A stretch of DNA of 42,385 nt from Reclinomonas americana ATCC 50394 (lineage: Eukaryota): contig PS015504.1 in NCBI GenBank assembly GCA_048213135.1, positions 60,505 to 102,889 on the forward strand. The letters are read 5' to 3'. Shown piece by piece: positions 206 to 42,385 of this stretch. The translations under genes were made by a program, and so were the position numbers. Numbering within the stretch: position 1 is the first letter of the stretch; each line of letters starts with the position of its first letter. A model generated the notes under the pieces. The model did no database searches, was not told where the DNA came from, and saw nothing but the letters and a program-made list of their open reading frames with translations.

Positions 206-3200
206 ATGGCAGACAAGACGTTGCGTGTGTGTGCCAGAGAGTGAAAGAGAGGAAATGCATATGCGCGTGCGTCGTAAAAGTGCTCTATTTTGGCTGGTGA
301 TGGCGCACCATGCCCGCCTTTTTTCCCCCTCCTTTCCCCCTCTCTCTTTTTCTCTTAGAGTGCTCACTGTGTCGCGTTGTTGTTCGCACAGTGCCACTGC
401 TGTTGCAGGCGGTGGTGGTGGCGCTGGTGTAGCCTCATTACCGCCTTCTGAATCATTATTACCGCCTGTGCGAGGAGCTTCCTCGTCAGTGTTGTCATCA
501 TCATCATCGTCGTCGTCTTCATCGACCGCAGCAGCCGCAGGTGAGTCACCATACAAACGGCCTTTCTCTCTTGCATTGTCCTCCTTCCGCTTCTCATGCA
601 GTTGTGCATGTGGCGGCAGCTCGGCCGGATCACTTTGGCGAGTTGGATCCGGAACGGATACCTCTGCTGCTGCGGCAGTTGGTGGAAGAGGCGCTGTCGG
701 GGTGCTTCTCGGCGTCAACGACAGAGTGCGGCTTCTTTGCATCGGTGCCGACGCACCCGGCTGTGTATCCGCACGTGGTGCGCGATCCGTGGTTTGCCAA
801 GGACCTGATGAAGATCATTCGCGAGAGACACGACAATGTGCCAGTTGCGTGCTGAGAGGGGAGAGGGGGTGAAGGGGGAATGGGTGAGAGAGTGGGAAAG
901 GTGTCTCGTAACTGTTGTCTGTGATTGTCGCTCCATGAGCTGCTCCTGCCTCCAACCACGCTCTTGTCTCTCCCTCCTCCTCCTCCTTGTTCTTCTTCTT
1001 CTTCTCACTACTTTTCTTCTGCATCCACCCCTCTCATTCTGTTTCTTGCCTCTGCTTCAACATCAGTCTTCATCCCTCCGCTTGTCTCCTCCTCGTCCTC
1101 CTGTTCTTCTTCGTCCTCTCCTCCCTTCCTCCTGCCTTTCTGTCTGTGCCGCAATCGTCTTGCATCCTCCACCTCCAGTCCTTCTGTTTCCTCTTGTCTT
1201 CTACTCTCACTCTTTCATTGCCTTCAGTCTCCACTCCTCGCCTGCCGTTGTCTCTCTCCTCTCCTCCCTTCCCTCTGCCTCTTTGTCTTGTCAGCAGCCC
1301 TCTTATCTCCTCCTTCCTCCCTTCTCCTTCTCCTCATCCTTCTCCTCATCCTTCCCTTCTCCTTCCGCAGCTCGTCCGTGCAAGCATCCACGGCCTGTGC
1401 ACCCTGGCGATGAGTCCGGAGGGACGCAGCGTAGTCATGGAGGCCGGAGCTCTGGATTTCGTACTGGAGCTCGGCGCGAAGCCAGCCTACGCCGATCTGC
1501 GCTGTGACTTGTATCTGGTGGCCACCGCGCTCACCTCGTCGGGGCTGGTGGTGAACGGCGTCAACCTGGCGCAGCGGATATTCCCGGCGTATCGAGAATT
1601 GGTGTCGGAGCTGAGCTTCTGGACGCGCTTCCCGCTGAGTGCGGTGGCGAACACGTGCGGCAACTTTATCGACACGGCGCGCGGCGAGAGGACAGACTTT
1701 GTCAGTTTGTCCAACAAGGTGAGCGAGAGGAGGAGAATGACGACAGGGGGACAGGGTGTGGGCGCGCACGACTGACACATCTTGTGCATTGTTAGCGTGC
1801 CATTCTCGAGGATGTCGTGTTTCTGGAACGCCTGCAATGGTTGCTGGAGCAAATGGCGGTGGCGAGCAGTGGCAGCGCGGCGACGGCAACCAGTCCTCCG
1901 CCGTCGCTCACCAATGGCCACCATGCGAGTGTCATACCGACGGCCAACGGCAGCGGTGGCGCCAGCGTGATTTCCATGGGAGCCACTCCGCCGGCGGGCG
2001 GTCCGGTGGCCTCTGGCGGCAGCAAGCTGGCATATGCGTTTTCGCTGCTGCTGCAGGACGGTTCGCAGAATCCGGTTGCCAACGAGCATGCGGTTTCCAT
2101 TGTGGACACTGGACTGTTTCGGGTGCGTTGTTGGTTGACTGCTTGTGTGAGAGAGAGAGTGTGCGAGGGTGATGCTGAAAGAGTTGTGGCATCGGTAGAC
2201 GCTGTTCGTGACCGTGATTGAGCCAATGTGCATGGCGTACACACTCGACAACAAACTGGCCATCACGTGGATGGAGTTTGTGTGCAATCTGGCGTTGACA
2301 CGCGACTGTGGTCCACGGTCTGTGTGCGGGCATCCTCTTCCATTCTTGTTTGATTCTGACGTGCGCGCACGGATCGCAGACTACTGAGCATTGAGAATTT
2401 TGTGGACACGCTGTGTGCGGTGGTGATGCGAGATCCCGCCGACGAGAACTTTTACCTGAAGAGTCTGGCCTTGAAGGCGTTGAACACGTGCATGCTCAAC
2501 TCCGGTGCGTGTATGTCTCTCCTGCCAGAATGTGTTCATGCATGTGCTAACTGCGCGCTGCAGACATNNNNNNNNNNNNNNNNNNNNNNNNNNNNNNNNN
2601 NNNNNNNNNNNNNNNNNNNNNNNNNNNNNNNNNNNNNNNNNNNNNNNNNNNNNNNNNNNNNNNNNNNNNNNNNNNNNNNNNNNNNNNNNNNNNNNNNNNN
2701 NNNNNNNNNNNNNNNNNNNNNNNNNNNNNNNNNNNNNNNNNNNNNNNNNNNNNNNNNNNNNNNNNNNNNNNNNNNNNNNNNNNNNNNNNNNNNNNNNNNN
2801 NNNNNNNNNNNNNNNNNNNNNNNNNNNNNNNNNNNNNNNNNNNNNNNNNNNNNNNNNNNNNNNNNNNNNNNNNNNNNNNNNNNNNNNNNNNNNNNNNNNN
2901 NNNNNNNNNNNNNNNNNNNNNNNNNNNNNNNNNNNNNNNNNNNNNNNNNNNNNNNNNNNNNNNNNNNNNNNNNNNNNNNNNNNNNNNNNNNNNNNNNNNN
3001 NNNNNNNNNNNNNNNNNNNNNNNNNNNNNNNNNNNNNNNNNNNNNNNNNNNNNNNNNNNNNNNNNNNNNNNNNNNNNNNNNNNNNNNNNNNNNNNNNNNN
3101 NNNNNNNNNNNNNNNNNNNNNNNNNNNNNNNNNNNNNNNNNNNNNNNNNNNNNNNNNNNNNNNNNNNNNNNNNNNNNNNNNNNNNNNNNNNNNNNNNNNN

Positions 3201-5146
3201 NNNNNNNNNNNNNNNNNNNNNNNNNNNNNNNNNNNNNNNNNNNNNNNNNNNNNNNNNNNNNNNNNNNNNNNNNNNNNNNNNNNNNNNNNNNNNNNNNNNN
3301 NNNNNNNNNNNNNNNNNNNNNNNNNNNNNNNNNNNNNNNNNNNNNNNNNNNNNNNNNNNNNNNNNNNNNNNNNNNNNNNNNNNNNNNNNNNNNNNNNNNN
3401 NNNNNNNNNNNNNNNNNNNNNNNNNNNNNNNNNNNNNNNNNNNNNNNNNNNNNNNNNNNNNNNNNNNNNNNNNNNNNNNNNNNNNNNNNNNNNNNNNNNN
3501 NGCAGGCACGGTGGACAACCTGAGATATCCACGGCCGGACTTGATCGACCAGCTGCCGCCAAGGCTGACGGGTACGCCGACGACGCTGCACAACATGTTG
3601 CCGATTGAGCAGCTCAGTGACATTACGGGAGGTATGTGTTGGGGAAGCATATGTGCTTCGGGCTTGGTATGTGCGTATTCACTGCGCACTCTGCAGCGGA
3701 ACCATTGATCCCGACCGCGTGTCTGGACATTTACTCGTCGTTTGACGAGGGTCTGCTGATGTCGCTGTCGCTGGAGAGCATCCAAAAGTCGCTGCACTTC
3801 TTGGGACCAAAGGTCGCGGCGTGCACCGAGGCCGACAAGCCAAATCTGCTCAGTGCGTTTGCCGTCGTGTACAGGACGCAAATATCAAATCCAGGTCATT
3901 TTTCATCGAGACATGCGCTATCTATCTTTGCTTCTCACGCACGCGCCACAGCAATTGCGAGATATCCACTGTTCCCGAACGGTTCGGCGTCACCTGGTCG
4001 TGGCCTGCCCACCAGACCTGTGGATTACTTGCATGCGTTGCACGCTGTTGCGTTTCCGATCTTCTCTACCTTCACGTGCTTTCCTCCTTTGCTCACCCGC
4101 GTGCGCAGGCGGGTGGCGAGGCGGACGACGAAGACGAAGACGATGGATCGGCCGCGGCCAAGAAGCGCAGGAAAAAGAAGAAGAAGAAGAAGAGCCGAGC
4201 CAAGGCGAATGGAGGGGTGGAGGGCGAGAGTGAGCTGCAGGCGACGGGGGCCGTATCCGGCGACGGAGCCGTGCCCGAAGACATGCCAGATCTGGAAGAC
4301 ACGAGCTCTGTGGAGGGCGGCGTGTCGGACTCGATCCGAGAATTGCCGCCAGGGCTCGCCGACTCTGCCATGGCGCTTCCCATGGTTTGCCATGTTACTG
4401 CTGCACAAGTGCTGCTAGTCTCCTCCTCCCTTACCACCTTTCTCTGCGCAGCCGTCAGAGTTCTCTCGCGGCATGTTTGTGGCCACATCCACATGGTACG
4501 CAGTGCTGCGAGCCGAGGTGGGTTCGAGTCATCGGATAGCCCTCGGCAAGGTGCGTCGGTGGTTTGTGAATGCGTGAGTGTCGCTGATTCCTCAGCTCAC
4601 CTTGTGTGCATTCGTGCAGGAGCGTGGTGACTCCGAGTTTGCGTACGGCGAGTTTGCCAAGGCAATTGGCAGCTACGGCTCAGTGGTCGAGTCGTGGGAC
4701 TACTTTTGGGCGGATCCGCACATCTTGAATGCGACGCTGTGCAATCGGGCACTGGCGTACATGAGACTGGTGAGCGATGCACGGCAAGGCACGGCAAGGA
4801 GAGAGTGGTGCGAGTGAGTCGTCTCACAGTCTCGGCTGTTAATGCAGGGCGACTACGCACGGGCGCAACGCGACTGCGAGTACGTGTTGAGACACGATTC
4901 ACGGAACGTCAAAGCGCTGTACCGGCACGCACTGTGCTGCAAGGAGCACGGTGATTTGCCGCAAGCCATTGAAGGTATCTGTCTGCTCACCCACTCAATC
5001 TCTCCCACGCACATGCTGTGTGTGGTTCATGACACCTGTCGTGTGTAGATGCATCGTCGTTGGTCACCTGGTTACCGGAGCACGCTGGAGCCGCGAATTT
5101 GCGTGCAGAACTTCTGTCCTCGTTGGACTTGCAGGCGATGGACTGA
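206..5146 (+). CDS. Large multi-exon protein: helical (ARM/HEAT-like) N-terminal region, acidic/basic linker, C-terminal TPR repeats; interrupted by gap 2568-3501
   Basis: Exons join in frame at GT-AG sites: MADKT|ATAVAGGG..., LVRASIHGLCTLAMSPEGRSVVMEAGALDFVLEL (ARM-like), then TPR text KERGDSEFAYGEFAKAIGSY...LCNRALAYMRL|GDYARAQRDCEYVLRHDSRNVKALYRHALCCKEHGDLPQAIED, stop TGA 5144-5146. Start ATG 206 is tentative because an upstream GT-AG intron (99-198) could be in the UTR or coding. Continuity across the gap is assumed. Confidence 0.7.
950..1365. repeat. CT-rich low-complexity tract within intron 844-1370
   Basis: Near-pure pyrimidine (TCC/TCT) sequence between the GTTGCG donor and the CCGCAG acceptor. 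Confidence 0.85.
2568..3501. other. Assembly gap (N)
   Basis: Run of N. Other gaps: 6911-7080, 25423-26143, 36007-36545. Confidence 1.
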
Positions 5147-5287: not shown

Positions 5288-7533
5288 TCAGCGATTGCGA
5301 GACTTGTCACAAATGTGGTTCAGCTTGCGTGCGTGATCCAGCTTGTGGGCTTGCGTTCGGCATTCACGGCCCCACCTACAGTCACGGCGGCGTGCGTGTG
5401 AGGAGAAATGACGCATCTCTGCATGTGGGCCTCGCTCGGCATACGCACCAGCAGTTCGATCGATTCTTGGCCCAGTCGGGCATGTCGTCCTTTGTCAGTG
5501 CGGCACGGTACTGGTACAACAGCTCGGAGAACACGGAGAAGCAGCAGTTGCGGCACACGTACAAATCAGCGGTGACCGGGTTGCCGTTGCGAACTGTGCG
5601 CGACACGCAGACAATGGAGTCAACTACTGTCGTCGAACACGCAAATCAAGATGTACGCAACCCAGTGCCATCTCGTGATCGCGCAGGCGCTGCACGCAAT
5701 CCTGGAACACATCGTTCGGTGTCAAGCCGCGCTGCGTCATGTGGTAGCGCACAATCTCCATCTCGGCGGGGTTGCTGTTGAGCGCGGTGGCCGGCAGCGC
5801 ATCCATCGACCAGTCACCGAGCTTCTTCAGCGCGCCGACCGCGCCCGACGCACACCCACCAAAGTACTGGTCGCACATGAATATGCGGCAGAGGCCACCT
5901 GCCATGCACGTCAGCATTCTCCTGCATCACAATGTGGCCGCAGAGTTGTGCACGCAACAGGTCTGCACACGCTGACAGCCGGCATCCCGCATCGGCATGA
6001 GGCTGCGACAGAAGCCGCAGTACACATGTTGACCGGTGCACTGGAAGCCATCGGGGCCTGGGTGCAAGGGTATGATGAGGAGATTGGCACACACGGACGA
6101 AGGGAAGAAGAAGAAGAAGGGACATCGCACCTGCAGCAACGCACTCGCGGCACGTGGGTCGACCGAAGCGCGGAATGTCGTCGTCGTCGTCACTGCCACT
6201 GTAGTCGTCCGAGTCCTCGTCGTCGCTGCCGTAGTCGTCGTCGTCGTCGCCACTGTCATAGTCATCGCGGCGACGTCGACCCACACGCATGCTGTGATTT
6301 GACGGTGAGCCATGCACCTTGCGAGATTGATGCACGGAGCCACACACCTCTCCGACGTGATCATGTTCATCTTGTCCAACTCGGCAATGTCGTCGGGTGA
6401 GCGCTTGGCCTCCGGATGTGACTGCCGAGAGAAGCAAGTTACGTGAGCAGAAGGAAGAATGGAAGAGAAGAGACAATGATGGGGTGCACCTCCAGATACG
6501 CCTCCACCACTGCAAAGCAAGCAATTCGGTGAGATGCAGGGGGGAAAGAGTGACATTAACGGTATGGTGCGCAACGATTGCTAACAGTGTGATTGCGGTG
6601 CACGACCTCAACACGACGGCGGCATTGCGGGCACGTCTTGTTGCTCTTCAGCCACTGGCTCATGCACGGCGCACAAAATGTGTGCATGCCTGTCACACAA
6701 ATGTCAACTCGTGGCAGTTCACATTCACACCTAGGAGAGCGAACGCAACAAGGCATGGCCGAGACCGCCAGATACAAAACCTCGTAGCACACCGGGCATT
6801 GCAGTTCCGACTCGAGTTTCTTGTGCTGCACACACACACACATAGTTGTGAGCGACAGCGACTTTACACAAGAATAAGAAAACAATGTGAGTGTGACACG
6901 CACCAGACGTNNNNNNNNNNNNNNNNNNNNNNNNNNNNNNNNNNNNNNNNNNNNNNNNNNNNNNNNNNNNNNNNNNNNNNNNNNNNNNNNNNNNNNNNNN
7001 NNNNNNNNNNNNNNNNNNNNNNNNNNNNNNNNNNNNNNNNNNNNNNNNNNNNNNNNNNNNNNNNNNNNNNNNNNNNNNNNGGTGGAGAGGCTAGTCAGTG
7101 AGACAGTCTCCACACACCTGCACACTCCTGCACAACAAACCTGAGGTCCTTGACCACCAAGTAGCCACGTCCACTGGCCGCATCCTGCTCATACCACACC
7201 GCACAGTGCCGCGCCGACACTCGGCGATCATCGAAACGACACTCGTCGGGCAGCTCGGGTCGTCGCCCAATCACCACTGCCGACTCCTCGTTGAGATTGC
7301 GCGAGGAGAAGATGCCAATGGGTTGCAGAGAGGCGGGCCCAGCTGAGTACGATGCGCCAACGGGGACGAGACGGGCAACAGGCTGCTCCACCTGTGACTG
7401 AATGAGCGCAGAGTAAGTGAGCGCATGAATTGCAGACAACTGTGCGTGTGATGTGCACCTCGTCGTCTTTGGTGGAGGAGGAGAGGTCGGCGGCATCCGC
7501 GTCAGTGATTTCCAAAGTGGCGTCCAGCGACAT
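5288..7533 (-). CDS. CHFR: E3 ubiquitin ligase CHFR-like (FHA, RING, Cys-rich region, C-terminal PBZ)
   Basis: FHA: VVIGRRPELPDECRFDDRRVSARHCAVW...VKDLS. RING: LQCPVCYEVLYLAVSAMPCMHTFCAPCMSQWLKSNKTCPQCR, followed by HRNHTVSNLVEAYLESHPEAKRSPDDIAELDKMNMIT, matching CHFR NNLVEAYL..HP.K.RS. C-terminus VCRNCCFSVFSELLYQYR...RSNCWWGRECRTQAHKLDHARKLNHICDKSR matches the CHFR PBZ. Gap 6911-7080 lies inside the gene. Confidence 0.92.
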
Positions 7534-7621: not shown

Positions 7622-9170
7622 ATGACTGCAGTTGCGCGCTCACCACTCTCACTCTTTGCTCACTCACATACACTCACATCCACTGTAATCAGGTGCCCAC
7701 CTTTGGCCACGCGCTTGGACGCGAGCATTTCGGCTTGGCGGCGACCTATCGCAACTTTAATCATGGCTCGTTCGGGTCGGCTCCTCGCGCAGTCACCTCT
7801 GCGCGACGACGATACGAGGACTTGTGTGAGGTGCGTCTCCTTCTCTTTCACACACATCTCCTTGGTGTCTCAATGCTGGCTTGCAGGAGCGCCCTGATCG
7901 ATGGTTCCGCGAAACCTTTTACCAACTGTGTCGTGAGTCGCGTGAGGCACTGAGCGCCTACCTCAACGTGCCGGGATCTGTCGATCACTTGGTGCTGGTG
8001 GAGAATGCGTCCACGGCAGTCAACTCGGTGCTGCGCTCGATGCAGTGGAACGAAGGCGATGTCATTCTCTACTTTTCCAACACGTGCGCTCTCGAGAAGC
8101 TTCAACTGGGAGACTCGACTCGACTTACACCCTTCGCCTTTGTTCCGCAGGTATCCCATGATCCCGTACACGGCAGAGTGGATTCGCGATCTGCAGTCGT
8201 ATCGTGTATCGCTGCGACTTGTCACGGTGCCGCTGCACTTCCCGCTCGTGGACAAGGAGTCGGTGCTGGGGCCGCTGCGTGAGACGCTGCAGTCGCTGGT
8301 TGCGGAGGGCGCCCGGGTGCGTGTGGCGTTTGTGTGCCACGTCAGCTCCATGCCCACGGTGGTGATGCCGGTGCAAGAGATGGTGGCCGAGTTGCGCGGC
8401 TCGGGCGTGGTCGACAGTGTGTTTGTGGACGGCGCGCACGCCATTGGGCAAGTGCCGATCGACCTCACAGCCATGGCACCCGACTACTACACCGCCAACT
8501 GCCACAAGTGGCTTTACGCGCCCAAGGTATGTGCAAAGACACAAGATCGCCGCTTCGAAGACTGAGATGTAAAACGCAACGCAGGGCGCTGCCGTGTTCT
8601 ATGTACGCCCCGAGTTGCAGACGGAGTTGTCGCCGCAGCCGACGGTGATCTCCAGCACCGGCATGCGCGGCTTCGTTGACCGCTTCGCGTACACGGGAAC
8701 ACGCGACTACACGCCGTTCACCTCGATCAAGGACGCGCTGCAGTTTCGCAACGAGGTGTTGGGCGGCGACGAGGCCATTCGTGACTACGTGGGCGAGCTT
8801 GCACGCTGGGCGGGTCACTACCTCGCCGAACAGTGGGGCACCAGGGTGCTTGTGCCCGACGCCATGGTGGGTCGGGCGAGGAGGGGGTTGATGCCACCTT
8901 GTCACTGCACACTGACATCTTTTTGATTTCCAGATTGGTTTCATGACGAACGTGGAGTTGCCGGTGCGCAGTTTCGCCGAAGCGCAGCACCTGCAGGAGC
9001 GTCTCGATAAGCAGCACGACGCGTACATGACGGTGCTGCAGGTGGACGACATTGTGTACAGCCGCATCTCGGCACAGGTGTACATGGAGAAGGAGGACTA
9101 TGAGTGGCTGGCACGCATGGTGCCGGAGGTGCTGGCGTCGATGCGAGAGGGCGAGGCCGGTGAAGCATGA
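7622..9170 (+). CDS. PLP-dependent class V aminotransferase-fold enzyme (Egt2 hercynylcysteine sulfoxide lyase / L-cysteine desulfhydrase / isopenicillin N epimerase-like)
   Basis: 6 exons: MTA|VPTFGHALGREHFGLAATYRNFNHGSFGSAP...; LVLVENASTAVNSVLRS; FVDGAHAIGQVPIDL; DYYTANCHKWLYAPK|GAAVFYV (PLP lysine); FAYTGTRDYT; YSRISAQVYMEKEDY; stop 9168-9170. Confidence 0.9.
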
Positions 9171-9270: not shown

Positions 9271-12200
9271 CTAGCGAGCGGATGCAGCGGCCGCTGGCCG
9301 CTGTGGGGTGTGATACAGATTCGGGTCATTGCTGGTGGCAACTCTGGCGGCGGCACACGTCGGTGAGTTCCTCATATCGCAGAGCAAGCAGAGGTGGCAC
9401 GCAACAACAGCCGCAACTTCCTGCTGAGCTCCTCCAGCACGGCCTCACGCTCCTCAGCGGAGAGCGACTGTGGGGAGTACGATCGGAAAATCATCTGGTT
9501 GTCACTCGAATCCTGTGGCAGGTCGGGCAACGTCCGCTCAAGCGGTGGACCACCGACCCACAGCGGTCGCGACGATTGCCTGTGGCGACAGCGAGTGAGT
9601 GGGCGGTTGGATGAATGTGTACGCGGCAGCACTCTCACCGAGGCGGATTGTGCAACACGTCGCCAATCGCCACCAAGTCAGGCGTGTGTACTGCGCGCTG
9701 ACCCGACAGCGCCTCGTACAGCTGCTTCTTCTCCGATCGGATGGCCTTGTTGATGGCCGGAATGCCTGCAATGCTGTGAGTACGCCACATACACGGAACG
9801 AGCACCTCTTGATCAACGCAACATTGCCGAGGAATGGCGCCCGTCTGCACCATTTGCACCAGGTCATCCAGTGCCTTCACATGGCGCTCGGTGCTCATTG
9901 CTTCCGCTGGCGCATTCGCTGCTGCTGCTGCTGCTGTCGTCGTTGTCGTGGTGGACGACGAGTCAGCATTGCCGTCGGCAGCGGTGGCCGAGCGGAACGC
10001 GCGCCCACGAGCCGTCATGCGCGACCCGTTGTCAGAGGAAGCGACTGGCGAGTGCGGTGTTCGTCCACTGAGAGGTGGAGGTGCCGGTCGAGCACCAACT
10101 GCTGCAATAGTGGCAAGGAAACAGTGTGAGACACCAGCCTACAAGGATACCCACTTAATCAATTGACAAACCCAGAAGCGACGTGGGAGTGGCCAGGCGC
10201 TGCAATCCAGTCGGTAGTGTCCGTGGTGTCTGTGCCACGGTTGAAGCAGACGACAGCGGCATCTCTCTCCGCTGTCGGCTGTTGTGACGGTCGCTCACGG
10301 GTGGCAGATTGGGTGCCGAGTGCGCGGTCCCCGGCACCTTGCCCATCCTGCATTTCAACACAATGAGAAGGAGGGAGAAAGAATCAGGCAGGAGCAAGCA
10401 AACTTACATTGTGGAGGCGCTGGCGGCCGTAGCCGAGCGTGTGGTGGTCGTCCCGGACATGGGCTGGCCCCACGCCGACGCCGATCCGAATGCCACCATC
10501 GGTGACGGCTCGGGTAGTGGTGCGCGCGGTGGACTGGCCTCAGTCACGTCGGGCAGGAATTCGGTGAACTCCAGAATCGTGCGCTTCGCAATCACCTCCT
10601 CCAGCACAAACGTGTGACGCAGTCGCGGACCACGCATCGTGCGCGCCGACTGCACTCCGTTCTGATGCACCGACGACTTGGTTCCCGCACCAAAGCCATC
10701 CTCGTCATCCATCTGCTCTCGCCCACGACACGGAGTGGTGAGGAAAGATGAGCAGGCAAGGAGTCACAGATGGAAGCAAGTGCGTACCGCTCGCATGCCA
10801 GCAAGCCGGAGAGAGGGCACGGAAGGTGGTGGGTGTCGCGTGCCAAAGGCCAGCGGTATGCCGGTGCCACGGGAGGCACTCGTGGGCGACACAATCTCGG
10901 GTCTCCGCGTCGACTGCGCTGACGGTTGTGGCTGCGGCTGTGGCAGCGGAAATGACTGCCGACTCCTCCGTCGCTGTCCCTGGCGACCAGACGAGTGCGC
11001 AATGTGCATGTTGACCACGGTCGGCACAGATAGGTCGGCGTTGCGTTGAATGCCGGTGGCTGTGCACCATGAAGAGGTTTGGTCGGTGACGGACGGAGAA
11101 AAGGGGAAAAGCGTAGCACACAAACCAGTCACTCGCGCCGAAGGCACCACCGAGACTCCTGTCGTCGACTCCCCTTGTTGCTTTCTGTGCTCCAGGTCAG
11201 TGGATCGGAGAACTACTGCTGCTGCTGTGCACGCGATCCACCACGCACCTCTCCAGCAACTTGCGCACACGGCGAGCGCGCTCCGTGGCATACTGTTGCC
11301 GCATTTCACGCCATGTGGGGAAGGTGCGCTCCAGCAGCGACTTGGCGAGGTCGTAGTACTCTCGCGAATCAACCGAGTCCGTCCAGGCTGTGTGCGCACG
11401 CGCACGTGTCAGCACCACTCGTTGCGAGAACACAGAAAGGAGAAGAGTGTAGGCGAGGCGCAACTGTCGATAATCTCAAACATGGAATCGAAAAAGAGCG
11501 CAAACGTGATGAATGGTTCGTGTGTGCGATCCTGGTCCCACTCCGCCTGCGTGCAGATCGTGAGTGAGGTTGGAAAGAGCTGGTAAAGACGCGTGCATGC
11601 ACAACGCAGCCGCACCTCGAGAAGCCTGTCGATTTCCGCACTGGTGAAGCCCACCATGAGCGTGCTCAACACTTGCGCAAAGAACATGCGGTACTCGCCG
11701 CGCGAGAGCACGCCATCGTAATCCGCGTCGGCGCATTCCCAAAGCTGTGCAGAGTGAGCAAGGGAGGATGTGAAGAGTGGAGAGTGGACGAGGATGGCGC
11801 ACCGCGTGGAACACATCAGTCAGCTGCGGGTCGCGGTACGTTCGTGCACGCTCCACAGCCGCCACCTCCGTGTGCTTGTTCACAGCACTCTGCCGCCAGG
11901 CCGGTAATTGTACAGCGCTGCCGCGAGATCGCAGAGTGAGTTATAATAATGCGAGACGACAATGGGCACGGGTACGGTACGCACGGATCGTACTCGATCT
12001 CGACCTGGCCAGACTGCAACAACTCGTACATGACAAGCTTGTCTGCGCACGCCAGTTCATATGTGAGGTGATTGCGGTCACGGAAAGGATAGCAAGCGAC
12101 GCAGGCTATACACAACATCTGTCGACACGCTCCCGCCGCGAGTAGGCCGACGAGAGGAAGAGGGAGCCCTTGAGCACCCCACGCTGCGCATGCGAGTGAG

Positions 12201-22100: not shown

Positions 22101-23472
22101 GTTTTGTCAAGTCACAGCAGAACGACAGCCACAAGGAGGCCACCGAGCGCATCTACAATCTTGTGGACGCCCTTCAGCGCTACCGCGACGACGCCGAGCT
22201 GGACACTTTCAGCCGCGTCCTCAAGGGTGTGCATTCAACACACAAGTTTCCTCTCCTTGTTGTGCTCCACTCGCACTCAATCAACTCATGTGCAGGCGAG
22301 CTGGACGAAGCAGTGTTGGGCGAGCAACAGAGCCTGGTGGCGCTGTTGAACAAGAAATTGCATCGGGTGGTGGACAAGGCGGCGGCGGCGGCGGCATCAG
22401 CTGGCCCCGCAGCCTCCCCCGCCGCCAACGAGATGCCGTGGGAGGCGTTCTGGAGCTGCGTAAAACGAGCGTGTCCAGCCAAGTCCGACGCCTATCTCCG
22501 TCGCTTGGAGGAGGTTGGTGACTTGCACTCCTTCTACGTCTTGCAACCTCCTCACTCAACGCATGCGGCTCGCTGCGATTGCAGGCCGTACGATTGGATT
22601 TCGACGGACAGCTTCCGGCGCAGGTGCCATTCGAGACCCTGCTGCAAGAGGACGGCGATCTGTGCAGCAGTGAATTCGTCGATGAACTGCGCCTCCAGCA
22701 TGTGGTGGAGCGTGAAGTCTTCTTCCGCGATCTCATGGTGTGTGTGTGTGTCGACTCCTTCTTCGGCAACAAGCATGAGTATATATGGCTAACTGATCGG
22801 TGCTTGCCGCACGCAGCTGGAGATCATGAGTCGGGCGTCGATGGACGGTGAAATCTCGCCCAACGAGGCCCTCGCTGCAATCCAGGCAGTGGATCCGGCG
22901 CAGCAGGTACGAGTGGGAGGCAGAAGTGGAGGTGTGATTCGAGACGGCTCATCGTGCTGTGTGATTTCCAGATACGAGAGCTGGATCACTTGGTGGCGCG
23001 TGGCTTCGACATGCTGACTCGCATCGAGCTGCTGATTCCTGTGGGTGGTGTGGTGGACGAATCGGGCGCCACGTCCAAGCGCTCGTACCGATCGCAGATG
23101 CGCGTGTCGGCTCACGACTTTTGCCAGGTGTGGTCGAGCATGCTCTGGTGATCTTGCGTGTGGTGGCGCGTCGACTCACTTTCTACACTCAGCGTCTGCG
23201 CACGGGAGCGTTGCGCCGACGATCGCGAAAACAGTACATTCGACACGGCACCGGCGTCAAGATGCTGCTCGGCGACGGTCTCGCGGCGGTGCTCCGCGGC
23301 ACGAGCTCCGGATCCTCGCACGGCAGGCGAGCACCGTCCACCGATCAAGTTGCGTCGCCCTGCGCTGCATCAGCGCCTTGTGTTTTTTTCCTCTTATCCA
23401 GTCGTCGCCTGCATGCAGGAGGCTCCGTCGCGACCACTGGTGCCACTGGAGCCCCCACGTGGACCATTGTAG
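19133..23472 (+). CDS. TSNAXIP1: Translin-associated factor X-interacting protein 1 (TSNAXIP1)-family protein, about 17 exons
   Basis: SKPQLLRQLEMYLDENL...RLAVFRETLSLLLEQFKTYKPILSRIVQEYE (TSNAXIP1_N-like), coiled coil, LTPRPDW, LVGLGDGPDVPRHLRWVGKIAN and YNLVDALQRYRDDAELDTFSRVLKGELDE are family-typical motifs. Final exon EAPSRPLVPLEPPRGPL* is inferred. Confidence 0.8.
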
Positions 23473-33000: not shown

Positions 33001-35593
33001 GCTTGAAATGGTTGGGAATGCACTCTGCCACACCATGCAAAGACAGAACAAGATAACGCACGTCGTAAGAAGGCTGGTGTGCACAAAGCAACAGTGGCAC
33101 CAGCGTCGGATCGCACCTTGGAAGAAGACCATGAGCCCGGAGATGACATCAGGGTGGATGTAAATGGCCGACGGCTGCAGCTTCATCTCGAGTTCGAGCA
33201 CTGGCGTCGGCGGCGGTGGCACGGGCAAGCGACTGATGATCTTCATGCGCAGGAACATGCTCTTGTGGTCGCGCGACATGAGCGCCACCGCCTCGGACGG
33301 ATAGGTCTCCGTGTCGGAGAATTGCGGCCACAGTCCTGTCGTGAGAGAGAGAGAGAGGTGAGTGGGGGAGTCGGTTGTGCAATGGCAGCACGTGGAGTGT
33401 GGCGCACCAGCTCGATACTCCTGATTCAACCAATCGGAGCCCTCCGCTGGCGCAAAGATGTGCGAAAAGTCCTGGTGATAGCGCGCGCTGGGGAAGTTCT
33501 CCTTGACACTGATGAATGGCAACGAAACCTGCATAACGCAACGAGGTTTCATCAACACAACTCGTAGACATACAGAGATGAAAAGGCGAGAGCACGAGAC
33601 CTGCACTTGCGTGTGCGACATTGGTGCATCCTCCTTGAAGACGAGACTGACGCGAATGTCGCTCGACACCAACGAGTAGGAGCGACTGTCGGCATCACGG
33701 CTGCCGTCGCTCAACGGCGACGATGCTGCAGGTGTGTGTGAACGGGACTGCATGAAAACAGGCAAGAAGGATGCAGGCAGTGCGACGCGACTCACCAATG
33801 TCGGAGACAGAGGCTCCGAATTTCGGCATCAGCTTGATGATCAACTGCGGCACAATCATGTTGATGACGACTAGCGGATGTGGCGGGACCGCCTGTGGCG
33901 ATGCAGACGAGCCACTGGCTCCACTGCTTGAGCCACCAACAGCGATGCCGGGGTCGGTGGGGCCATCCATGCCCACTGGCTCATCGTCCTGCGCGCACAC
34001 ACAACAAGACGAACTGCGTGTGAGTATGCACACGCCACTGCCTACTCTCTGCTGTTGTTGTTGCTGCTCGTACACGCACATCAGTGTCCTCGCCCAGCTC
34101 CTTGGCCAGCTCCTCCAGCTGCTCCGACGCGTCGTCCTCTTCGCTGCCATCCGAGGTCGCCGGCGGCACACCGCTCACGGCCGGCGCTGTAAGCCTCAGT
34201 GACGATTCGGCTCGCGCAGCTGCGGTCTGCGAACTGGCCGGAGCGGGTACATCGTCGCGGAAGATGCAATAGACCAGCCCAGATACCTGCCGTGCCAGAG
34301 TCAGCGCGCACGTGTTGGCTCTCTTGCGTGCAACCGCCAGCACTTACCGAGTGCAGCAGGGAGCGCAAGTCGAGAGATGTCACTTGAATGATGAGGTCAT
34401 CCAACGTGATGTTGACGTACACGGCTGTCGGCGTGCCACCAAGTGCTTTCTTGGTGATTGACATCTGGCGCATAGTCGAGGGTGAGCACACAGCACACGC
34501 TCAAGTGAGGTTACCGCGACACCACCACAACACCTTCATCATGCAGCTGAGGTTGCGCAGAATGTAGGACCGCTCGCCCACCGTCTGTGTGCCATACGAA
34601 CGCGCCATCGTGAACAGGCTGATGGAGCGCACGATTCCCTTCTTGTAAACGGTGATCTCTGGCACTCGCTTGTTGTACTTGGGCAGAGCCTGGTTCAGTG
34701 GAACCACATTCCATTCCGAGTTGGTCGTGAACATGGCAATCTCGTTCAGCTCGAGGCACAGCGCCGGTGGAGTCCTGCGACAGCAGCCGTGAACAACAAC
34801 AAAAGGCTGGAATGCACACGTCACAATTCACCAATCGCCTGTGGCCTCGGTGCGATACTGGCCGAGTGTGAACAGTCGAACGAGAATACTATTCACCTCG
34901 AAGCGCAGTCCGTCACCGATCCGATCACCGAACCCGTACTTGGCCAGTTTTGGCGGCTTCTTTGGTGGCTTCTTACTGCACACACGTGTACACAGGTGAT
35001 TGGATGCGCAACGTCAGTCACCATCCATGCGTAGGAAGCAGCTGCAGGGAGGCCGGCAACGAAACGTCGGGAACAGATGCGACACAAGATCCGGAGCCTC
35101 GACCAGCGTCTCCGGCTCCACCACATCCACGACGATCTGGTCGACGCAGATGGTGACGGGCTCGGAGCCGAGCTTGGTCACCGAACACTGCACGCATATC
35201 GCCGTGAGAAAGAGCGTGCGCGAGGAAGGAAAGCGCGCACGAACCTTGACGTGCGCTCGATTGATGAATGCACGAGCCAGCTTGATCTGTGGCAGTCCCG
35301 TCAGCGAGTTGATGGCGTCCACGTTCAGCTCTGCATCTCACGTGTGAGTGATGAGGTGAACACAGGAGAGCGAGTGAGAGAGAGAGAGAGGAGAGAGTGA
35401 TCGCACCAATGTTGGTCAACACGCCCTCGCCCTTCATCAACGACAGCGAGATCTGCTCTCGCGACCAGTTGACAATGAATGCCTTGAGGTACTTGGCAAA
35501 GATCTACCGCACCCACTTGCGTCAGCCGTGCGCATGCACACCACATACTTGCAATAACACAGCGACACCCACCTTGCTGATGATTGCCTCCAT
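27059..35593 (-). CDS. Bridge-like lipid transfer protein, BLTP3/UHRF1BP1-like (Chorein_N + RBG-type body) with C-terminal PH domain and coiled coil; about 28 exons
   Basis: MEAIISK|IFAKYLKAFIVNWSREQISLSLMKGEGVLTNIELNVDAINSLTGLPQIKLARAFINRAHVKCSVTKLGSEPVTICVDQIVVDV (Chorein_N) and YGFGDRIGDGLRFEVNSILVRL...TTNSEW...EITVYKK align with the BLTP3 N-terminus as I recall it. PH-like: IEGPVEFVDPVRKKTRTRYALVRRTTLYWYRSQK...KGSLDLTGA...YLFFASDEERSMWTQAL (~29010-29400). Terminal coiled coil ends at TAA 27059. An uninterrupted in-frame splice path could be traced. Confidence 0.8.
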
Positions 35594-35901: not shown

Positions 35902-38900
35902 ATGAGTCACCTGTAAGCGAGCGCGCCGCTGAAGGCAGTTTTCACCTCCTCTCGCGCACGCAGACCGGACAAACACACGCTGGAACATCTCTCTCACGCT
36001 CGCTTGNNNNNNNNNNNNNNNNNNNNNNNNNNNNNNNNNNNNNNNNNNNNNNNNNNNNNNNNNNNNNNNNNNNNNNNNNNNNNNNNNNNNNNNNNNNNNN
36101 NNNNNNNNNNNNNNNNNNNNNNNNNNNNNNNNNNNNNNNNNNNNNNNNNNNNNNNNNNNNNNNNNNNNNNNNNNNNNNNNNNNNNNNNNNNNNNNNNNNN
36201 NNNNNNNNNNNNNNNNNNNNNNNNNNNNNNNNNNNNNNNNNNNNNNNNNNNNNNNNNNNNNNNNNNNNNNNNNNNNNNNNNNNNNNNNNNNNNNNNNNNN
36301 NNNNNNNNNNNNNNNNNNNNNNNNNNNNNNNNNNNNNNNNNNNNNNNNNNNNNNNNNNNNNNNNNNNNNNNNNNNNNNNNNNNNNNNNNNNNNNNNNNNN
36401 NNNNNNNNNNNNNNNNNNNNNNNNNNNNNNNNNNNNNNNNNNNNNNNNNNNNNNNNNNNNNNNNNNNNNNNNNNNNNNNNNNNNNNNNNNNNNNNNNNNN
36501 NNNNNNNNNNNNNNNNNNNNNNNNNNNNNNNNNNNNNNNNNNNNNGCCGTTGCACACACACTGAAAGAGACGCGCTCTGTGCTAAACACAATTTGCTGGG
36601 TGTGCGCAGAACGAGTGCGAGCGCCTGAGGAGACTAGTCGTCACTCTGCAGCGCGACCTTGCAGTTACTTCGCCGCCCCGGACACATCCAGCCCCTCGCC
36701 CCTTTTTTTCACACTCCCCCTCTCTGTCACCTGCGCAGGAGAAGCAACGTCGACTGCACGAGAACGGCGTGTACATTGAGGTGGCGAGGGCGAAGCTGGA
36801 CCGCAAGAACAAGGTCATCATGTACATTCGACGGACACTCTTCCAGGAGGTGGTGCGACTGCGTGAGGAACTGTACAAGCAGAGCAAGGCCGGCGGCAAC
36901 TACACGGTACGTAGAGCAAGGCGTTTGCATGTGTGTGTGGCCAGATGGGCTCACACACGCGACGGTGGCATGCAGAGCGAGTTCGAGAGCCTCTTCGACA
37001 TGGCGATGTTGATGGACGAGATCTCGCAGGGCGACGGCCCCGACCGCGCCATGTCGCCCGAGGCCAATGCCAACCTGATCGAGAAGCTGAAGAAGCAAGC
37101 CGACGCCAACAACCAGGCCATGGAGCTCAAGTACTCGGTGCTGATGGAGGAACTGAAGGAGGTATGCGCGAGGGTCCCTTGGCCACAGAGTGACGGGAGT
37201 TGTCCTCACCTAACTGTGTTGTAGAAATACGAGCGGCAGCTGTCTGATCTGGCCGCCGACATGGGCGAGGAGATCGCCAACCTGCGTGCTGATCGGGAGA
37301 ACGCCGAGATTCAGGCCGACTTGCGCGTCCGCCAGGCCATCGAGGAGGTGGAGAACGAGCTGGAGCTCGTCAGGAGGTGCGCGTCCACATGCACCGTGCG
37401 CACATCCATTGCCCTCCACTCTCCCTCTCTCTCACACGTGTGCACAGAGATGCCATTGATCGCAGCAGCATGATGGAGGCAGAGATGGAGGCACTGCAAA
37501 AGCGCAACGACGCCCTGAACGCGGACCTCGATCAAGCCATGACCAACTTGGCCGGCTACGACGAGCTGCAGGAGAAGCTTCGGCAGGCCGAGGAGGAGTT
37601 GAATGAGCACCGAGAGAGTGCGCAGGGCCGGCGCGCCGAGTTGGCACTCGCCGAGACCAAGCTTGCGCAGGATCACGAACAACTGCAGGCCTCCTTCAGG
37701 ACACTCCAGGCCACCCTCGACGACAAAGAAGCAACATTGGAGGAGCTCGAACGCAAATGCAACGAGCTCGACGTCAAGCACTCCGAGTTGTCGTACGAGA
37801 ACGAGCGGTGGACAGACTTGCGATCGTCGGTGGTGCTGGACGAGGCACAGAACCGATACATATGCCAGGAGCTGGTGGACTTGCGACGGCAGATCGCCGA
37901 CCTGGAGCGCACACTGCGTGACGAAAAGACGCTGCGCAACAAGCAGGCCAAGAAAATCATGTCCAAGGCCAAGGCCACTGGCGAAGAGGAGAATGGCCGG
38001 CGCTCCTCCACTTCGTCGGTCACCTCACCCAACTCGAGAGTTGCGTCGATAGTGTCTCACCCTGTGTCGGTGAGATCTCTGGCGACTCGCTCACCCTCGT
38101 TGCTGCGTACTGTAGGCCGGTACGCCAAGTGGCGCCTCTGCTGGTGGTGCTGTCGCAGAGACGGACGACAAGGAGACACAGACACAGGAGGTGACGGTGG
38201 TCGACGGAGGCCGAGTGTCCACGCTGGAGACTGCCAACAGAACACTGGAGGCCACAAAGAAGGCTCTGGAGCAGCACGCATCGACACTGGAGGAGAAACT
38301 CAACAAGGCCACGGCCGATGTCAATCGTCTGCAGCGACGCTTGGTGCAGGTGTGTGTGTGGTGGCAAGCGGTCGGGAGAGAGTGATGACGAGTGGTTGCT
38401 GACGACGATATGTATCCACAGGTCGGCGGCGAAGGAGAGCGCAAGTTCTTCTCCTCGCCAAGCTCCAAGGGCAGCCCGAAGAATGACACCTCCGCAGCCT
38501 CCGACCAGTACGCGGGCATGGAGGTGGCGCCACCCAACGACGAGCCCTTTGACGAGCGCGCGGCCTTCCGGCCACGCAAGGGCTCGTCGCCCAACAGTGT
38601 GCGTCAAGTCGACATTCACGGCCTCGGCAGCGACGACAGTGCCGGCATGTCGGACGACGCAGAAGAATCGAGTTCTCGCCAAGAGCGTCGCCGAAAGAAG
38701 CGACAAAAGGCGACGGCATTCAGGTGAGCGAACAATTGTTGTACATTATCCGGTTTTGGGCAGCAGCATTGATATCATGACGCGCACGCAGCAATATGGA
38801 TGTGTATGAGCGCATGATGCAACGCTCGGTCCAGTCGCGACAGCGCCTGGAGGAACAGCGCAGCCTGCACGCCGGCGAAGTCCGTCAGATGTGGGAGCGG

Positions 38901-41516
38901 CTGCTGGCGGTCACTGGCTACGGCAACCTCTCCGACGAGGTGCTGTCGCCCGAAATCGACAAGATGACGGTCGAGGCACTCGAGCTGGTCGGCAATGGCG
39001 GCTACGGCGGCCGCTCTGGGTTCGCTGGTGGTGCCACGAGCAGTGGGACCGAGAGCGATGGTGAGTATCCGCGGAACCGGCCGTCGCTGCAGGAACTGCG
39101 CGCCATGTATCATCGCCACCTGGCCGAGGCGATGCGCTCGCGATCGGTGAGTGTTCGAAAGAGAGTAAGAGGAGAAGGTGGACTGCACGAATATTGACCA
39201 CGGTGGGCGTGGGGGCAGCCGTCGTTTGCAGCTGCCTCCGAATCATTTTTGGCCGACCATGCGGGTGAGCGTGAATTCCTGCCGGCCAACTTGCGCGGCG
39301 TCCCCGGCGCCCCAGCCACCACCACCACCACGACTTCACAGTTGCTACTGGATGCATTGGCGACGAAGCGGTTGCTCGATAAGCAGACCGAGGAGGAGAT
39401 GCGCAGAGAGTACGAGCGGGACCACGGTCAGTGGGCGTCTCGCTGTCGATGTGATGCATCTTGTGCGAGTGCTGACAGTCGCAACCCACAGCTCCGATGC
39501 CGCCACCGCTGTGGGGCACACGCACACCGCAGTCGGTGTACTCGCTGATGAGCTCCACCGGTCCCCTCAACACCAGCGAGTTGAGTCAGTTGGCGACGAG
39601 CTCGCTGAACCACTCGTTGCACATTAGCAGCATGGGCGGACCGTCCGGCAGTCGCGCCTCTTCGCCACCTTCTCGCCCACCCGCCACGCACACGCACATG
39701 GCCAGCAGTGGCTCTGCCAGTGGCACTGCGTCGCGCTCCACGTCACCCGTGCGACAGCCGGTGGTCACTGTGCAAAACATGCCGCTGATGGCGCGCGACG
39801 GGTCGAACCCCGTGGCCCAGATGCTGCTCGGTCGCCAGTTCACCCACGAGAGCATTCGCGACGACGACGACATGGTCATGGACGACGATGGCGAAGGCGA
39901 CGCTGGCGGCATGCAACAGACAATCACTGGCTCGCACTTCTCGCCCATGTCGGTCGGCAGCAATGCCAGTATTGCGGTCGCGGCCGGCACTGGTCACAGT
40001 GGTCCAGTCACCGAGTTTGCGGCGGCTGTGGAGGCCAGTCGAAGGAAGCAACGGCCGGCCACCGCTCCGCACCGCTCGGTCGCTTCGGCGGATCTGCTCG
40101 ACATGGCGGCCAACGGCGGCGGCAGTGGTGGTGGTCCGATTATGACCGCGACAGCGGCACTCACGGCGGCTGGCGGTGTTTCCGGTGGTGGTGCCTCTGG
40201 TCTGGTCGACGCGGCGCTGGCGTTGCGCAAGCCTCGGCCGAGCACCGCGCAGTCGCTGCGCTCCGCCTCGTGGGCTCCGTACGGCGTCGTGTCATCGTCT
40301 TCCGGTGGCGCCGTGCAAGCCACCATTCCAGAGGGTGGTGCATCGCGCAGCACGGCCTCCGAGTCCGTCTCCAACTCGGTGGTGACTGCGAGTACCGGAA
40401 CTGGCACGGCATGGAGGTCAGTTGGCGCAGCGGTGGTACTCGTGGGAAGCAGACTCCTCACTTTGTTATTGCCACAGACGACCACAGAATGCTGTCGCCG
40501 GCGTCGGAAGCCTATCGCAGTCGTCCAGTTCGAACGACATGGCAGCCTCCATGCAGCTCGTGTCGGCCTCGCACGGCAAGTTCACTCGGCAGATGCGCGA
40601 CTTGCTGAACATGCAAAAGGCCGAGCGGCATCGCCAGATGCCCGCCGTCCGCAACGCACGCACCGCGAACGCCTCATTGTTCCGTGGTCGCGCACTTGTC
40701 AGGTATGGTTTTCTTGATGTGCACAGTCTGTCTTTCTTTCCGCTGATCACGGCGGTGATGCAGACCACTGTCGGCCGGGAAGAGAGAGGACGAGCCGGCA
40801 AGTGTTGCGGTACGACCGACCAGCTCGAAGAGCAACATGGACTGTTGCGTGCATCGCATCACGTGGCTGATATCTGTTTCTCTGAGATTTGCTGATCATT
40901 GCGATTGTGTGCATGCAGTGCATGCTGCTGGCCGCGGTCGGACACCCGTACTGCCACCAGCTGCAGACACTCCCACCAATCCAGCCGACCTCTTGCGCCA
41001 TCTGTTGCGTCCCTTCTCCTCCCCTCGGTGTTTGTTCGCCGTCTCACGTACTTTCCCTTTCCCTTTCGCAGCGAGGAAAATAGTCCGCCGAGTTCATTCA
41101 CGCTGACGCTCCGCAAGAAGCTCGAGCGACTGGAAGAAGGCGAGCGACAGCGTGAGGGTTCCACCAAGCTGCTGGCCTCCGATTACCTTCGGCGTGTCGT
41201 CGATGGTGATGAGAGTGGATCCGCGGTCAATGGATCGCTGGAAACCAGCCTGCAAGCCGATGTCATCAACCAGTACCTGGCGCAGAGCGAATCCACCCCG
41301 GTGCCACATCCTGCTGGCCGACCCCAACGCTCACTGAGTGTGGGCGCCCCCACACGAGGCTCCTCGGCCCCCATAAAACGAAGCCCCGACTTGCGTGGTG
41401 AACCCTGCGAGCCGGTGGAGGGTGGCGGCGTCGGTGTCGGTGGCCTCGATGTCACCAGTCCCTCCTCTCGCTTCGTGAACCGCGTGCGCTACGCCTCGCG
41501 GCAGCACATAAAATGA
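35902..41516 (+). CDS. Large coiled-coil protein with low-complexity C-terminal half, unknown function
   Basis: Spliced heptad-rich exons (NECERLRRLVVTLQRDLA|EKQRRLHENG...RTLFQEVVRLREELY; MEAEMEALQKRNDALNADLDQ...), then Ser/Gly/Ala-rich exons with RPATA/RPSTA motifs; stop TGA 41514-41516. The start (MSHL|PDK...) is tentative because gap 36007-36545 intervenes. Confidence 0.7.
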
Positions 41517-41585: not shown

Positions 41586-42385
41586 ATGTTGTCGCGCGTG
41601 TTGCGTCGGGCGTTCAGTGATGCCGCGTTTGCGGCAAGTGTCTATGAGTTGCATTCATGCACACACGCACACACACACACACACTCTCTTCTGCATTGTT
41701 CCCTCACACTGAGGTGCTATGCAGTCATCCGATGCGTCGCGCTCCCGGACCTCATCTCTCCAAACATGAGACGGCCGCGGTGATTCTGCGCTATCCCGCC
41801 GTGCAGCGCGCCATGGAAGACGAGAGCAGACGCACTGGCAAGTCGCTGGCACAAGTGGAGAAGGAGTTGTGTGTGTGTGTGATTGCGTGTGTGCATTCTT
41901 GTGCCTCATCATCTCCCCCGTCCTCGCAGATCGCGCGATGCACTGCTGTTCATGGTCGCTGAGCCACGCATGGCACACATTCGTGTCATCTTCTATGTGC
42001 TGGTGAGGAGATGTGTGTGTATGTGATGTGCGACTGGAGTGTGCGGACGGCTCACATGCTGCGGGAATCCACCAGCGCAAGGTCATTCGCCGCATGTTCT
42101 CCAGCATCCATGTCGATCGCGAGGGCGCCACGCAGGTGTGTGGCAGGCGAGAGGGGTGATGCGGAGAAAGAGAGAATGAGTTGTCTCACGCTGCCGGTAG
42201 ATTCGTGCCGCACTCGAACGAGCCCCGATTGTGCTGCTGCCGACCCACAAGGTCAGTTGTCTGTCTCGTGGACGACGCTCCACGCTGCTTGTTGTTGGCT
42301 CAAGTGACTCGCACAGGCGCACATGGACTATCTGATCATGCCTTGGACGCTGGTCACGGAGGCTGGCATCGAGTGCCCCGTGTGC
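41586..42385 (+). CDS. Glycerol-3-phosphate / dihydroxyacetone-phosphate acyltransferase (GPAT1/GNPAT/PlsB family), 3' partial
   Basis: ...RKVIRRMFSSIHVDREGATQ|IRAALERAPIVLLPTHK|AHMDYLIMPW contains the acyltransferase HxxxxD motif in its family context (LLPxH(R/K)xHxDY). The N-terminus MLSRVLRRAFS resembles a mitochondrial presequence. Confidence 0.85.

Follow-up and report, generated by a model that had tools for sequence, protein, structure and literature searches.

Background

In the textbook view of splicing, the helix that U1 small nuclear RNA (snRNA) forms on the 5' splice site and the site of the cut stand in a fixed register. A departure from this is described for human introns, where in the shifted register all pairs between the 5' splice site and U1 move by one position (Roca and Krainer, cited in PMC4856993), and by the figures given in PMC4856993 the validated human off-register sites of all types number 3119 out of 201,541 (1.5%). 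Another departure is described for Entamoeba, with the donor GUUUGU(U) in 88-90% of introns and a U1 reading AACAAAC/ACAAAC, and for Mastigamoeba, with the donor GUACGU and a U1 reading ACGUAC (bioRxiv 10.1101/2022.06.08.495308). Here we describe the introns of a 42,385-base window of eukaryotic DNA (from contig PS015504.1 of Reclinomonas americana ATCC 50394; the window is the whole stretch analysed), which has a G+C content of about 58% and about 11 genes, and in which about one intron in six begins with GTTGCG(T/C), a second and genuine class of GT-AG 5' splice sites.

The ordinary site of this window is CAG/GUGCGU and that of the second class is CA/GUUGCGU (the slash marks the cut), which is the same nine-letter motif with one substitution, the G at +1 having become U, and with the cut one base earlier, which makes the counterpart of the ordinary -1 G the first base of the intron. 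That GTTGCG is a real and abundant second donor class had been proposed in an earlier note on this DNA, and is borne out both by the enrichment seen when introns were modelled blind to the donor and by five junctions that are fixed by homology.

A second donor motif in the gene models

Both strands of the window are tightly filled with intron-rich genes (118 introns per 22.7 kb of coding sequence). Counted over both strands, there are 60 copies of the hexamer GTTGCG (31 forward and 29 reverse), about three times the mean hexamer count of 19.5, and GTGCGT, the ordinary donor word, occurs 64 times. Relative to the gene models, 40 of the GTTGCG sites are in sense orientation, 15 are antisense and five lie outside, and the excess on the sense strand is about the number of donors claimed in the earlier note. 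That note had listed 32 hexamers as donors (24 GTTGCG and eight relatives), each with a position and a strand, and all 32 are found there.

Introns were called with a gene finder that uses dynamic programming on both strands and was trained on this one window. Its donor-blind form combines an interpolated, 3-periodic Markov model of coding sequence with an acceptor matrix and a length prior, asks nothing of the donor but GT, and in its intron composition model skips the first 10 and the last 14 bases of each intron; the full model adds a table of donor hexamers (+1 to +6) learned by iteration. The full model misplaced three of the five donors fixed by homology (see below), and the curated set of 118 introns is the full model with three homology corrections. 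Two other finders were dropped, one based on codon usage only, which was too noisy (71 introns, many of them composite), and one adding an acceptor matrix and a donor table to codon usage, which still lumped short exons.

The donor-blind run gave 120 introns, and its commonest donor hexamer was GTTGCG, with 16 of the 120. The earlier note had proposed comparing the frequency at junctions with the background, and against 60 GTTGCG among 5180 GT sites the enrichment is highly significant (binomial p = 1e-12); all 16 donors are sites on the list of that note. Usage per hexamer in this run was 16/60 for GTTGCG, 10/64 for GTGCGT, 4/49 for GTGAGT, 1/30 for GTTGTG and 0/23 for GTTGAG. With the full model 117 introns were obtained, 18 of them with GTTGCG, and 20 of the 32 claimed sites were recovered; forcing the other 12 lowers the score by 2.5-7.6 nats.

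Model and homology together back 20 of the 24 GTTGCG donors on the list, those at 220, 9405, 13653 and 25075 being left without such backing. Among the eight relatives, 24506, 30597 and 35065 were recovered by the full model and the other five were not, and the relatives recovered by the donor-blind run were 24506, 35065 and 41866. The earlier estimate of about 30 such introns in 120-130 is an upper bound; the curated set holds 20 GTTGCG donors, or 23 donors of the shifted type, among its 118 introns (17-19%), with T at +3 in 36 of the 118.

Placement of five junctions by homologous proteins

For junctions flanked by recognisable protein sequence, every stop-free GT-AG pair within 18 nucleotides (nt) was considered and the spliced peptide scored against homologues. 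At each of the five junctions treated in this way (14586, 6749, 6575, 5958 and 5661) the best score went to the GTTGCG donor with its inferred acceptor, and the cleavage lies directly 5' of the GU. When the open reading frames (ORFs) that flank each claimed donor were searched with Pfam, only the CHFR and LST8 junctions were confirmed.

The longest of these introns is in the LST8 gene (14586..15509 on the forward strand, 924 nt), where the peptide ...QYQDS is followed by QVN... and the GTTGCG pair is the best of three stop-free pairs. Residues 3-34 of yeast LST8 (PDB) match the ORF that ends at 14585 and residues 33-71 match the ORF of the next exon, and the last residue of the one exon (S) and the first of the next (Q) are yeast residues 33 and 34, which abut. 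The closest LST8 relative (P0138) gives the same picture, with residues 3-34 on 14490-14585 and residues 35-72 on 15510-15623, and with its residues 34 and 35 on either side of the junction between 14585 and 15510. 

The other four junctions are in a CHFR-like gene on the reverse strand, for which 17 relatives from a full HMMER search with one exon were mapped on the window. The intron inside the RING finger (6690..6749, phase 1) coincides with a 20-residue gap in all homologues aligned here, and its removal rejoins PC and MH with a Cys codon split as T/GC, after which the RING profile of Pfam picks up again in the next exon; GTTGCG is the better of two stop-free pairs. At 6510..6575, which the donor-blind model also finds, there is a 22-residue gap in the homologues within N-L-VEAYLE, and GTTGCG is the best of the stop-free pairs among the matches listed. 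The intron at 5899..5958 (a 20-residue gap in the homologues, best of three stop-free pairs) separates QTC from GLC, and its junction restores the C-x-x-C of the family, with the positions of the zf-CRD profile contiguous across the intron; GTGCAC, which lies 5 nt downstream and was chosen by the model, gives the wrong frame. Finally, the intron at 5594..5661 is likewise found by the donor-blind model, and apart from the pair that its GTTGCG starts, no stop-free GT-AG pair within 18 nt connects the two frames defined by homology.

A cut one base later, which would make the intron start with TT, was also considered. It gives the wrong residue in LST8 (S/Q) and at CHFR 6575 (N-L-V), and is ruled out by the conserved Q of the former and the conserved L of the latter. 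In the earlier note four junctions had been taken as pinned by conserved residues, and three of them (LST8 14586, CHFR 6749 and CHFR 6575) are confirmed to the residue. The fourth, in a TSNAXIP1-like gene (20497..20558 on the forward strand, GTTGCG within FRETL-S-LLLEQFKTY), is backed by both the donor-blind and the full model; its short upstream exon is not seen by Pfam, the TSNAXIP1_N profile beginning at position 33 in the exon downstream of the intron.

Two further observations concern LST8. Within its long intron, at 14810-15070, a unit of 117 nt is repeated in tandem about 2.2 times (84-89% matches) and is flanked by AG-rich microsatellites, and further, diverged copies of the unit seem to run to about 15400, as judged from repeated peptide-like frames. 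At the other end of the gene, a stop codon and a TAG resembling an acceptor immediately precede the LST8 frame, which begins at 14490, and therefore the start codon has to be in a tiny upstream exon; the start that the model chose (ATG at 14168, followed by a GTTGCG donor at 14198) gives an N terminus unlike that of the closest relative (MVGVIL...).

Displacement of the motif on both sides of the cut

According to the earlier note, the class has the ordinary consensus moved by one base. This holds, and it extends beyond the hexamer, to the exon side and to +7. In the curated set G is found at -1 in only one of 20 GTTGCG donors as opposed to 44 of 50 ordinary GTGNG donors (Fisher p = 5e-11), and in the donor-blind set in one of 16 as opposed to 40 of 44 (p = 1e-9). 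The exon-side result is not built into the gene models, because the donor table reads +1 to +6 only. The base at -1 in the 23 shifted-type donors (A 9, T 7, C 6, G 1) is distributed like that at ordinary -2 (chi-square p = 0.32) and unlike that at ordinary -1 (p = 1e-11), their -2 (C in 10 of 23) is like ordinary -3 (p = 0.71), and their +7 (T 17, C 6) is like ordinary +6 (T 39, C 17, G 8 and A 5 of 69). When the 20 GTTGCG donors were set against the 36 non-donor GTTGCG sites, three features were commoner among the donors: C at -2 in 10/20 vs 3/36 (p = 0.0008), T at +7 in 15/20 vs 8/36 (p = 0.0002), and CA directly before the hexamer in 5/20 vs 1/36 (p = 0.018).

The two kinds of donor are discrete. 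When the 36 donors with T at +3 are taken together, six have G at both -1 and +5 (GTTNGT, the ordinary register), 28 have it at neither, and only one of each mixed type is found (Fisher p = 2e-5), and the donor-blind set gives six, 22 and again one of each among 30 (p = 8e-5). G at +6 is carried by 23 of the 29 T+3 donors that lack G at +5. The class is also the stricter of the two: the shifted-type donors have C at +5 in 23/23, whereas C at the equivalent ordinary +4 is found in 28/69 (p = 7e-8), and have G at +4 in 20/23. The ordinary-register donors with G at +5, which account for 69 of the 118 introns, have C 28, T 19, A 17 and G 5 at +4, and G 50 vs A 9 at +3. As for complementarity, 27 of the 118 introns have more potential pairs in the displaced register, and these include all 20 GTTGCG donors, so both flanks and complementarity of the class fit a displaced helix better than an ordinary one.

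Pairing with U1 and alternative explanations

Nearest-neighbour duplex energies were calculated for 20 sites of the class, 69 ordinary donors and 399 random GT sites, with the textbook U1 represented by the 11-nt unmodified oligonucleotide printed in PMC4856993. The means with this U1 end are -1.3 kcal/mol for the class, -6.9 for the ordinary donors and -3.1 for the random GT sites. The earlier note was right in its general idea of an unusual recognition step, for which it had named the register known from rare mammalian sites or else a variant U1/U6 snRNA or U1 snRNP protein. The mammalian register, merely used more often, is not enough, since random GT sites pair with the textbook U1 better than the class does. 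Under the textbook U1 the C at +5 of the class faces a pseudouridine and should not matter. As textbook pairing is very weak in any register, recognition would need a changed 5' end of U1, an additional U1 or a helper factor, and it is likely that U1 is adapted or that there is a second U1.

We favour, with a probability of roughly 0.55, the explanation that a U1 with a GUGCGU-fitted 5' end reads the class in a shifted register. Relative to the cut, the U1-type snRNA helix that first marks the site would lie one base further downstream than usual, and the steps that involve U6, U5 and Prp8 would afterwards place the cut at the one GU that the site offers. A helix shifted in this way would bear a forced mismatch at U+2, so that all its other positions would have to pair, which would explain why UGCGU is nearly invariant. 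The 5' end of U1 in this genome is predicted, from the preferences at +3 and +4 and from the energies, to have an ACGCAC-like core and not the textbook ACUUAC. A fit to GUGCGU is suggested by the C that is required at +5 of the class, by the preferences at ordinary +4 (C > U > A > G) and by the preference for G far above A at ordinary +3, the order at these two ordinary positions being that expected if the facing U1 letters were G and C, respectively. With such a hypothetical U1 end the energies become -7.6 kcal/mol for the class, -10.2 for the ordinary donors and -5.7 for random GT sites, and in the predicted helix G+6 pairs with position 4 of U1 in 18 of 20 sites, in nine of which G+1 also pairs with position 9. 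We infer U1 as the reader, its shifted register and its sequence from the DNA. A wider formulation, to which we give slightly less than an even chance, is that this would be a major spliceosome with two registers, in which a U1-type helix displaced by one base from the cut marks about one-fifth of introns, either by a co-evolved U1 or by a paralogue differing at position 8, and in which the choice of the cut would be uncoupled genome-wide from the first helix.

Several points weigh against a shifted helix with a GUGCGU-fitted U1. With that U1 the class beats random GT sites by only 1.9 kcal/mol, so that the discrimination offered by a single U1 may be too poor; the energies, in addition, leave out pseudouridines and proteins. 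G at -1 is scarce at the GTTGCG sites that are not donors as well (5/36), so that the telling contrast is the one with ordinary donors and not the one with the background. The sample is small (42 kb and about 11 genes) and the gene models were trained on this same window. Three of the homology-fixed donors sit 2.6-4.8 nats under the model optimum, from which we take the resolution of the model to be about 5 nats, gaps of that size deciding nothing. Lastly, 26 of the 118 modelled donors belong to neither class, and some of these are clearly wrong (6140 and 6023). The model introns at 6023-6140 on the reverse strand, with donors GTACTG and GTTGCT, clash with the alignments of the CHFR homologues, in which the exon stops at about 6129 (...CRECVAAG), at an ordinary G/GTGCG donor, and the neither-class donors of the model therefore include errors.

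The alternative that survives best, although we think it unlikely, is a dedicated second U1 paralogue with a 5' end fully complementary to CAGUUGCGU, which would serve the class as U11 serves U12-type introns. It would differ from the GUGCGU-fitted U1 by one C-to-A change at position 8, and the cut would still be one base off the usual place of the helix. Such an end pairs with 20/20 sites of the class in one register (-11.7 kcal/mol, vs -4.9 for random GT sites and -6.2 for ordinary donors) and so discriminates much better than any single U1; the discreteness of the two classes, with one of each mixed type among the 36 T+3 donors, is also what it would lead one to expect, and Physarum is reported to have a standard U1 and modified U1 variants (bioRxiv 10.1101/2022.06.08.495308). 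However, a fully matched U1 should allow degeneracy like that seen at ordinary +4, while the class is near-invariant (C in 23/23, G+4 in 20/23), as though to make up for a forced mismatch, and Rfam at its gathering threshold finds no RNA genes, and so no snRNA, within the window.

If U1 pairing were negligible, UGCGU might be read directly by a protein (of the U1-C/Luc7 type, or another binder of an intronic motif) or by U6/U5. The poor pairing of the textbook U1 and the unusual strictness of the motif would both agree with this, but the exon side shifts in step with the intron side, copying the ordinary class, as expected from one continuous helix partner, and on our reading of the scheme given in bioRxiv 10.1101/2022.06.08.495308 the ACAGA of U6 has no partner for C+5; we consider direct reading improbable.

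Less probable again is a bulged register, which the earlier note had offered alongside the shifted one, and of the two it is the shifted register that stands. In a bulged helix the ordinary pairing of U1 would hold at G+1 and U+2, and after a single bulged U (+2 or +3) pairing would resume at GCGU. GTTGCG is formally GTGCG with one extra T, and bulges of this kind are shown for rare human sites, where PMC4856993 (Table 3) gives 68 predicted at +2/+3 and 51 at +3. However, a bulge keeps -1 opposite C9 of U1 and leaves the exon side in its ordinary register, so that G would be expected at -1 as in the ordinary donors (44/50), and only 1/20 is seen (1/16 in the donor-blind set); it is this lack of a preference for G that speaks against the bulge and for the shifted register. 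Nor does a bulge predict the preferences for C at -2 and A/T at -1, which match ordinary -3 and -2, and the duplexes predicted for the 20 sites show the ordinary C8-G+1 pairing in only a small minority (one of 20 with the GUGCGU-fitted end). 

That the class is an artefact, a neighbouring GT being really used or the extra T being a homopolymer error in ordinary GTGCG donors, might be suspected because 12/24 sites read GTTGCGTG, with a second GT 5 nt downstream, the assembly is gapped (four runs of N) and the model errs at some junctions, but this is very improbable and already largely refuted by the five of five homology tests that pick GTTGCG (including 5958, where the downstream GTGCAC breaks the frame), by the donor-blind enrichment (p = 1e-12) and by the G at -1, which a sequencing error would have kept in about 88% of sites and which is seen in 5%.

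Other introns of the class and neighbouring features

The remaining GTTGCG introns were placed by the gene models, and both the donor-blind and the full model agree on nearly all of them. On the forward strand both models give introns at 4047..4108, 7631..7692, 20814..20878 (the second in the TSNAXIP1-like gene), 23349..23418, 38040..38115, 40844..40918 and 41004..41071, that at 7631 following a first exon of three codons with the putative start codon of a class-V aminotransferase gene. On the reverse strand both models give 9766..9822, 11388..11464, 28745..28861 (in a PH-domain gene), 31087..31165 (where a GTGAGT 5 nt downstream is out of frame), 32022..32088 and 32795..32859. The intron at 844..1370 on the forward strand (527 nt) is given by the full model and is absent from the strict donor-blind run; nearly all of it is CT-rich sequence of low complexity, with runs of CTCCTCC and CTTCTT.

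Three further introns show the displaced pattern with other hexamers: GTTACG at 24506..24567 on the forward strand, with C at -1 (both models), and GTTTCG on the reverse strand at 30529..30597 (full model) and at 34976..35065 (both models). Four GTTGCG sites remain candidate donors. Forcing the one at 220..601 on the forward strand costs 5.2 nats relative to an optimum that uses GTGTGT at 225, and on the reverse strand forcing costs 7.6 nats for 9332..9405 and 6.6 nats for 13559..13653, a region which the model spans with a single intron of 1393 nt that is probably composite. For the fourth, at 25075..25080 on the forward strand, no acceptor was found before the gap of N that starts at 25423.

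Two other kinds of donor touch on the choice of register. At 41866 (GTTGTG) and 41869 (GTGTGT) on the forward strand, tandem donors 3 nt apart and in frame compete in the full model, which makes them a candidate one-codon alternative 5' splice site that would set the two registers against each other. At 11980 on the reverse and 21071 on the forward strand the modelled donors read GTACCG(T/A), which is GTACGT with one extra C; these are placed by the model only and could represent a one-base bulge at +4/+5, another off-register type.

Six genes in all were named by Pfam on ORFs of at least 100 amino acids: the CHFR-like RING/zf-CRD gene and the PH-domain gene on the reverse strand, and on the forward strand the class-V aminotransferase gene, a WD40 gene that a PDB search identifies as LST8, a UMP-CMP/adenylate kinase gene and the TSNAXIP1-like gene, the last by its match to the TSNAXIP1_N profile. 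The kinase domain, at 17440-17976 on the forward strand, is one unbroken ORF of 179 codons and the only long intron-free coding stretch of the window; it holds no GTTGCG donor, and the in-frame GTTGCG at 17565 and 17664 are exonic. Protein homologue searches gave 46-62% identity for this kinase ORF and a best match of 71% for the LST8 exon, and the best named protein matches are from chytrid and blastoclad fungi, at about 60% identity. A metagenome scan with the LST8 exon found no close relative among the best 80 of 543 relatives, the best having 64% identity. The runs of N in the window are at 2568-3501, 6911-7080, 25423-26143 and 36007-36545.

Relation to described splice-site classes

In the full-text literature that was searched, which excluded subscription journals and supplements, there was no report of a GTTGCG/GUUGCG class of splice sites when this motif and shifted or noncanonical registers were looked for. 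The literature found on the shifted register was work on human or model organisms only, and a search directed at protists gave no specific match. Off-register sites are rare in man, and a single displaced motif that serves about one intron in six would be unusually heavy use of such a register. If the proposed reading is true, this genome would offer a natural system for how the cut is positioned independently of U1, for how far the 5' ends of snRNAs co-evolve with donor motifs, and for how discrete donor classes coexist in the major spliceosome; it would be of high interest if transcripts and U1 genes agree. Gene finders with a single donor matrix, expecting G at -1 and +5, will misplace the junctions of the class.

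That a second, discrete class of introns with its own strict 5' motif accompanies the major one is reminiscent of U12-type introns, whose consensus is a donor /RTATCCTT and a TCCTTAAC-like branch site near the 3' end. The introns described here are not of this type: their donors are GTTGCG and not /RTATCC, the branch-site region is of the CTCAC kind, with CTCAC/CTGAC at the distance from the acceptor (about 19 nt) that the other introns also show, and the median intron length is 67.5 nt for the class and 69 nt for the others. Short introns in the window are altogether uniform (for example 1719-1795, 4551-4619 and 20190-20255), with a modal length of 57-79 nt and acceptors that are mostly TGCAG or CGCAG. 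A branch-like CTCAC, less often CTGAC or CTAAC, has its A at a median of 19 nt from the 3' end of the intron; of 110 short introns, 81 have CTVAY within their last 50 nt, where the most frequent 5-mer is CTCAC (57 occurrences).

The human off-register sites come closer. As described in PMC4856993, the human shifted sites also have the cut at a GU with the U1 helix displaced by one base, G+1 facing the usual partner of -1, and poor pairing in the ordinary register. They are, however, a small part of the 1.5% given there for off-register sites of all types, whereas here one displaced hexamer accounts for 17-19% of the modelled introns, and unlike the human sites the UGCGU of the class is wholly at odds with the textbook U1 end. 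The human +2/+3 bulge is alike in having an extra U after the GU and a G at +6 that takes the role of the G at +5, but by the account in PMC4856993 it leaves the exon side in the ordinary register, whereas here the exon side is displaced.

With Entamoeba and Mastigamoeba, as presented in bioRxiv 10.1101/2022.06.08.495308, this genome shares a donor consensus other than GUAAGU; there too U at +3 is an ordinary donor letter, and the fit of U1 to the donor seen in those genera is what we predict here for GUGCGU. But Entamoeba has one motif in the ordinary register, while in our window no single atypical motif fills nearly all introns (20-23 of 118). Here two discrete motifs in two registers are found side by side in one intron-rich genome, which sets it apart from both the human and the Entamoeba cases.

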